From Escherichia coli (GTDB lineage: Bacteria; Pseudomonadota; Gammaproteobacteria; Enterobacterales; Enterobacteriaceae): 30,887 nucleotides of DNA. Made by a program: the position numbers and the translations under genes. This document shows, in pieces, positions 1 through 264 of the stretch (its first letter is position 1; each line of letters opens with the position of its first letter). Location of the stretch: the NCBI RefSeq assembly GCF_003334765.1, contig NZ_QOWT01000041.1. The stretch is one strand, 5' to 3'. The notes under the pieces were generated by a model. That model was not told the origin of the DNA. It ran no database searches and was given only the letters and a program-made list of their open reading frames with translations.

Positions 1-57
1 TTTCTCTTCAACCGAACCGGCTGTTTGTGTGAAGTGATTCACATCCGCCGTGTCGAT

Positions 58-93
58 GGAGGCGCATTATAGGGAGTTCTCCGCAGGCCGCAA
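58..93 (-). promoter_or_regulatory. rRNA-operon P1-type sigma70 promoter (rrnE P1 in the K-12 layout), transcribing leftward out of the window
   Basis: Minus strand reads TTGCGG (93..88), 16-nt spacer, TATAAT (71..66), GC-rich discriminator GCGCCTCC, then A at 57. CTCCCTATAATGCGCC is the hallmark of E. coli rrn P1 promoters. A/T-rich UP-like tract at 94..115. Confidence 0.7.
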
Positions 94-264
94 TAGAAAA
101 ATTGCAGAAAAATGACTGACTGCTGCATTCCCCAGCAAAAGCCCGCTTTATACCTTTTTACGCACAGAGTTATCCACAATCATCAATGTAATTTCTGTAT
201 TTTGCCCACGGTAACCACAGTCAAAATTGTGATCACCATTGAAAGAGAAAAATTCGCGAGCGTT

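Follow-up and report, generated by a model that had tools for sequence, protein, structure and literature searches.

Organization of the Divergent Promoter Region

The window, by which we mean the whole stretch of DNA analysed (30,887 nt of the Escherichia coli contig NZ_QOWT01000041.1, numbered from its left end), carries near that end the coding sequence of purH on the plus strand (388..1977, RefSeq annotation of the matching K-12 region) and, divergent from it, a promoter on the minus strand. The interval between them holds a predicted Fis site, a double DnaA box and a PurR operator. Reading both strands directly, we located the -35 hexamer TTGCGG of the minus-strand promoter at 93..88, separated by a spacer of 16 nt (87..72) from the -10 hexamer TATAAT at 71..66, which is the same in all seven K-12 rrn P1 promoters. 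A G+C-rich discriminator, GCGCCTCC, follows at 65..58 (-), and the predicted start of rrnE P1 is the A at position 57 (-), 9 nt past the -10, where it aligns with the equivalent base of the other rrn P1 promoters; rrnB P1 starts at the position equivalent to window 57. The first 56 nt of the P1 transcript, belonging to the P1-P2 spacer, fill 1..56 (-) and are the same as in K-12 rrnE.

The initial annotation, made from the letters of this DNA, had placed an rrn P1-type promoter in the range 57..115, which runs from the inferred start to about -58. The order TTGCGG-N16-TATAAT-discriminator-A that it gave for the minus strand was exact to the base. The A/T-rich, UP-like tract that it had seen upstream was also recovered, at 95..116 (-), or -38..-59, where 16 of 22 positions (73%) are A or T by direct reading and the sequence aligns with the UP region of rrnB P1. 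Within this tract the promoter strand has two runs of five T (97..101 and 108..112) centred at -42 and -53, 11 bp apart; in UP elements the proximal and the distal subsite for the alpha-CTD are centred at these two positions. What did not hold was the statement that the window opens inside P1: it opens in the spacer between P1 and P2, with P1 wholly inside and P2 wholly outside.

The pattern TTGCGG-N16-TATAATGCGCCNCC, with up to two mismatches allowed, has one match in the 30,887-nt window. The same pattern was found in 0 of 100 dinucleotide-preserving shuffles. A generic sigma-70 scanner run on 1..1000 called no promoter, neither rrnE P1 nor that of purH. The scanner accepts a first hexamer only if at least 4 of its 6 bases match, and since TTGCGG agrees with TTGACA at 3 of 6, rrnE P1 is missed; the silence of the scanner is a sensitivity limit of the tool and no evidence against the promoter. 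A generic sigma-70 scan can thus miss one of the strongest promoters of the cell. Rfam at the gathering threshold gave no match within 1..400.

Identity of the Promoter

The whole 30,887-nt window differs from E. coli K-12 MG1655 (NZ_CP032667.1) by 3 mismatches, all of them substitutions far from the promoter (2047 in purD, 7849 in yjaG, and 13380 in thiC). Positions 1..400 are 100% identical to K-12 MG1655 and to many other E. coli strains, and every one of the 5,426 complete E. coli genomes matched them, at a median of 2 places each. We aligned the window with the sequences upstream of the seven rrn operons of K-12. All 243 aligned bases of K-12 rrnE P1 (upstream of rrsE, b4007) are the same as in the window, an identity that covers the -35, spacer, -10, discriminator, UP tract, and upstream region and leaves no promoter difference. 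The alignment has a core, TCCCTATAATGCGCC(A/T)CC, that is common to all seven K-12 rrn P1 promoters; the discriminator GCGCC(A/T)CC was found in 7/7, and so were a -35 that begins with TTG and a spacer of 16 nt, with no gap in the alignment between the hexamers. Among the seven operons only rrnE has TTGCGG as its -35, the others having TTGTCA (rrnA, rrnB, rrnC, and rrnG), TTGTCT (rrnH), or TTGTGC (rrnD). Window 1..77 is also the same as the K-12 rrnH P1 region, and rrnH diverges past 77; the second place that 1..400 finds per genome is explained by this stretch common to rrnE and rrnH. Beyond the shared core the window continues into sequence unique to the rrnE locus, then into the divergent purH, purD, and zraR.

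An alignment to rrnB P1 had been proposed as a check. Both promoters have the TCCCTATAATGCGCC core, the 16-nt spacer, a G+C-rich discriminator, an A at the predicted start, and an A/T-rich region at -40..-60 that could be aligned, and a G-N13-C element of rrnE falls on Fis site I of rrnB. They differ in the -35 (TTGCGG in rrnE, TTGTCA in rrnB P1), in the discriminator (GCGCCTCC in rrnE, GCGCCACC in rrnB P1), and in the UP region, where rrnE has runs of T and rrnB P1 a pattern of A and T. Upstream of about -75 the two sequences are unrelated.

We regard 57..116 (-) as, almost certainly, the rrnE P1 promoter of a K-12-like E. coli, firing leftward out of the window. rrnE P1 beside purH is already known, ordinary, and expected in a K-12-like contig, and a biochemical paper by Aiyar et al. 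from 2002 is said to have been dedicated to it. As a textbook-class promoter with decades of study behind it, rrnE P1 in itself matters little. Its identification anchors the window in the chromosomal segment of E. coli that runs from rrnE to tufB. In a comparison of the seven rrn promoter regions, rrnE was the strongest and the one with the greatest loss of activity in a fis mutant (PMC4696680).

Linkage to an rRNA Operon and the Ends of the Contig

To the left of P1 the rRNA operon was followed in K-12. The -35 of P2, TTGACT, starts 18 nt left of window position 1, and a 16-nt spacer separates it from the -10, TAATAT, in K-12 rrnE. The boxA element, TGCTCTTTAACAA, starts 84 nt left of position 1, and mature 16S begins 228 nt left of it, at 284 nt from the P1 start. 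K-12 has in this way the succession of P1, P2 about 110-120 nt downstream, boxA, and 16S that characterizes the rrn P1 class. The 16S is followed by tRNA-Glu (4571..4646 of the K-12 sequence examined), 23S, and 5S, according to the K-12 annotation and Rfam, and this order of 16S, tRNA-Glu, 23S, and 5S in K-12 identifies the operon as rrnE. The introduction of PMC4696680 puts rrnE among the operons with tRNA-Ile/tRNA-Ala, whereas the annotation and Rfam give tRNA-Glu; that listing looks like a slip.

The initial annotation had predicted an rRNA operon just left of the window, in the rrnE layout of K-12, with P2, boxA, and 16S within about 300 bp and at most about 0.5 kb. With P2, boxA, and 16S at 18, 84, and 228 nt, K-12 agrees with the prediction, and in no reference examined was an rRNA operon lacking within 0.5 kb. 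The linkage was examined with a 601-nt query that runs from the first 174 nt of 16S across the leader into window 1..200. At least 80% of this query was covered in one place in 5,397 of the 5,426 complete E. coli genomes. Six other enterobacterial loci had enough flank for the same question, and in each of them the 5' end of 16S, as placed by Rfam, was 284-294 nt away from the P1 core. The rRNA genes themselves lie outside the window, and their presence in the source strain, as judged by synteny, is probable.

Both ends of the window are assembly breaks in repeats. The left end reaches exactly 77 nt (1..77) into the two-copy repeat of rrnE and rrnH, and the right end exactly 77 nt (30811..30887) into the two-copy repeat of tufB and tufA. 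Such a 77-nt symmetry of the two ends is typical of contigs built from a de Bruijn graph with k = 77, and the window looks like a complete short-read contig of that k. The assembly broke in the rrn repeat, and for this reason position 1 of the window falls 56 nt past the P1 start, with no further extension to be had from the same assembly. Since the contig stops inside the repeat, the body of the operon beyond the promoter in the source strain is unreadable from the window. Many of the related loci of 36 species described below are likewise contigs that begin at the same place as the window.

Conservation in the Enterobacteriaceae

We searched 100,044 species genomes for the P1 core with a PurR half-box 176-206 nt beyond it. 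The 36 species that pass belong to Escherichia, Salmonella, Citrobacter, Klebsiella, Raoultella, Kluyvera, Enterobacter, and Intestinirhabdus. Columns 61..75 and 267..278 served to select these species, so that conservation in the two segments is by construction. The profile of the 36 species has two conserved blocks, 53..178 and 241..388. The first includes the UP-like tract, which is mostly kept, and the element at 122..136, which is nearly invariant. The TTGCGG form of the -35 is present in 33 of 37 enterobacterial sequences, the others having TTGCAG (three) or TTGCGC (one).

Conservation is poor in 179..240, the stretch that separates the DnaA box from the purH promoter. Here Escherichia is shorter than the other seven genera by an indel of about 10 bp, close to one turn of the helix. 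This two-block pattern of conservation suggests that the rrn and purH controls are two adjacent but separate modules. It had been claimed that the purH control region shares about 200 bp with the upstream activating region of the rrn promoter. The distance is right, as the PurR box lies at -208..-223 relative to the P1 start; as a statement on function the claim is loose, and we rejected an overlap of the rrn upstream region with the purH operator in view of the two blocks and the variable spacer between them.

Proposed Mechanism and Alternative Readings

The steps that we propose for rrnE P1 are inferred from the established rrn P1 class; the architecture, the identity as rrnE P1, and the linkage to an rRNA operon come from the present analysis. 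The sigma-70 RNA polymerase would use the perfect -10 together with the weak -35 at the suboptimal spacing of 16 nt, with its alpha C-terminal domains bound to the A/T tracts at -42 and -53 as to an UP element. Fis, at about -72 and further upstream, would activate the promoter. A short-lived open complex is expected from the G+C-rich discriminator together with the long distance of 9 nt between the -10 and the start, and because of this short life the output should track the initiating ATP and drop with ppGpp/DksA. In closed genomes P2, the boxA antiterminator, and 16S come next, within 290 nt. For the divergent transcription of purH there is a separate promoter, repressed by PurR, about 235 bp off.

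The Fis site of this scheme is the predicted counterpart of rrnB Fis site I, with which it aligns: a G-N13-C element, GCTGGGGAATGCAGC, at 136..122 (-) with its centre at -72. In rrnB P1 the Fis sites are centred at -71, -102, and -143 (PMC2885671), and for rrnE five sites have been published and more than eight seen by gel shift (PMC4696680). In a crude scan with a hand-made Fis consensus (G-N13-C, centre A/T) 3 matches were found in 94..300, the background across the window being 2.7 per 200 nt. The crude consensus is uninformative and no Fis site was placed from it.

Nothing was found in the sequence against the reading as rrnE P1, and three other readings were weighed against it. That the hexamers are a chance sigma-70-like match devoid of promoter function could be argued from the silent scanner and from a -35 with only 3 of 6 consensus bases. 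We reject a chance match: the shuffles gave none, the core is invariant in the seven paralogous promoters, the non-consensus -35 is kept across eight genera, and the window is identical to a promoter that has been studied biochemically, so that this explanation has next to no probability. Assignment of the stretch to rrnH instead of rrnE is just as hard to credit. It draws on the identity of 1..77 and on the median of 2 places per genome, but from 78 on only rrnE matches, and the neighbours are purH, purD, and zraR, whereas rrnH adjoins gmhB; the sequence past this point and the purH-purD-zraR neighbourhood led us to reject it.

The reading that keeps a little more weight, though a very small one, is that rrnE P1 drives a different or hybrid rrn operon body in the source strain, brought there by recombination or inversion. 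The contig ends 77 nt into sequence shared with rrnH, with the operon body outside it, the inversion between rrnD and rrnE in K-12 W3110 offers a precedent (PMC4696680), and 29 of the 5,426 genomes have less than 80% coverage of the query that spans 16S and the upstream region. Set against this, the other 5,397 genomes reach that coverage and the window is nearly identical to MG1655. A hybrid body would still be an rRNA operon, and the claim of the initial annotation would therefore stand even then.

The Double DnaA Box

The only part of the rrnE-purH region that is not textbook is a double DnaA box, TTACGCACA-gag-TTATCCACA, at 158..178 (+), which was not mentioned in the initial annotation. 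It lies at -101..-121 from the P1 start, at the distal end of the rrn-side block. It is formed by two 9-mers, one of them a consensus box, and the same pair is bound in vivo, where it corresponds to a 124-fold DnaA ChIP-seq peak that was assigned to purH (PMC11317965). Binding was greatly reduced by mutating either box or by adding one extra base to the spacer (PMC11317965). The double boxes of polA, DARS2, and nrdA likewise consist of two 9-mers 3 bp apart, one of which is a perfect TTATCCACA, and the enrichment at the rrnE-purH pair equals that at polA (124-fold and 123-fold, resp.; PMC11317965). Unlike the pairs at polA, DARS2, and nrdA, that of rrnE-purH sits between divergent promoters, about equidistant from the two.

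In all 37 of the 37 enterobacterial sequences the consensus box of the pair and the P1 -10 core are 109 nt apart. The distance from the DnaA box to the PurR box varies: Escherichia has 96-97 nt, the other genera 105-108 nt. Within the pair, most differences are at the degenerate fifth position of box 1 or in the spacer. No rrn operon of K-12 other than rrnE has a pair of this kind. The rrnE pair overlaps the position equivalent to Fis site II of rrnB: where rrnB has this site at -102 (PMC2885671), rrnE has the DnaA boxes.

It is conceivable, if rather unlikely, that the double DnaA box is an input to rrnE P1, instead of or besides purH. The idea arises from the fixed spacing of 109 nt to the P1 core, as opposed to the varying distance to the purH operator, from the position at rrnB Fis site II, and from the fact that in PMC11317965 binding was measured and not the expression of either promoter. 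The data are just as compatible with pure DnaA titration, or with an effect on purH only. If rrnE P1 did receive this input, the state of the replication initiator would be tied to transcription of the strongest rRNA operon. A literature search for DnaA, purH, and rrnE named together found no paper.

A further 9-mer, TTATGCACA, which follows the relaxed DnaA-box pattern TTWTNCACA, overlaps the -10 and discriminator of P2 in K-12 rrnB, rrnC, rrnA, and rrnG (475, 484, and 487 on the plus strand and 479 on the minus strand of the fetched K-12 rrn upstream regions). It is absent from K-12 rrnE and rrnH, and rrnD has other 9-mers, TTTTGCACA and TTTTCCACA. The overlap of TTATGCACA with the P2 elements may be a coincidence.

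The PurR Operator and the purH Leader

The PurR operator of purHD, GCGCAAACGTTTTCGT, is located at 265..280 (+) and agrees with the palindromic consensus at 14 of 16 positions. The motif alone is weak evidence, as 24 of 100 shuffles have at least one PurR-box match at up to three mismatches. Its reverse complement, ACGAAAACGTTTGCGC, is the purH-purD PurR site obtained by ChIP-chip (PMC3159470, Table 1). Through this identity 265..280 is a 16-bp imperfect palindrome bound by PurR in vivo, and the PurR box that had been annotated there corresponds to a published site. The hexamer TACAAT directly after it (281..286, +), which is invariant in the 36 species, is the candidate -10 of purH; the scanner was silent on it.

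The 5' leader of purH contains a small hairpin, GCCCCGTTAGGGGC, at 306..319 and a near-perfect palindrome of 36 nt at 319..354. The leader RNA (293..395) folds with -35.6 kcal/mol (z = -4.2) and has no match to an Rfam family. Over 20 sequences the long stem has one compensatory change, C-G to G-C, in five Klebsiella/Raoultella sequences, which is probably one event. Its G-U pairs work only on plus-strand RNA, and its loop is variable, with an insertion in one Enterobacter. In the minimum-energy fold and in the RNAalifold consensus, part of the CCCC run of the first hairpin (307..310) is paired to the GGGG at the Shine-Dalgarno region of purH (377..380) and not to its local partner. This may be an alternative pairing, which would mask the ribosome-binding site; the columns involved are all invariant and hence carry no covariation evidence.

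Elsewhere in the window Rfam matches were obtained for the TPP riboswitch before thiC (11640..11740), for sroH (17433..17593), and, on the minus strand between rplL and rpoB (26929..26990), for the family "P26", all of which are expected for this K-12 segment.
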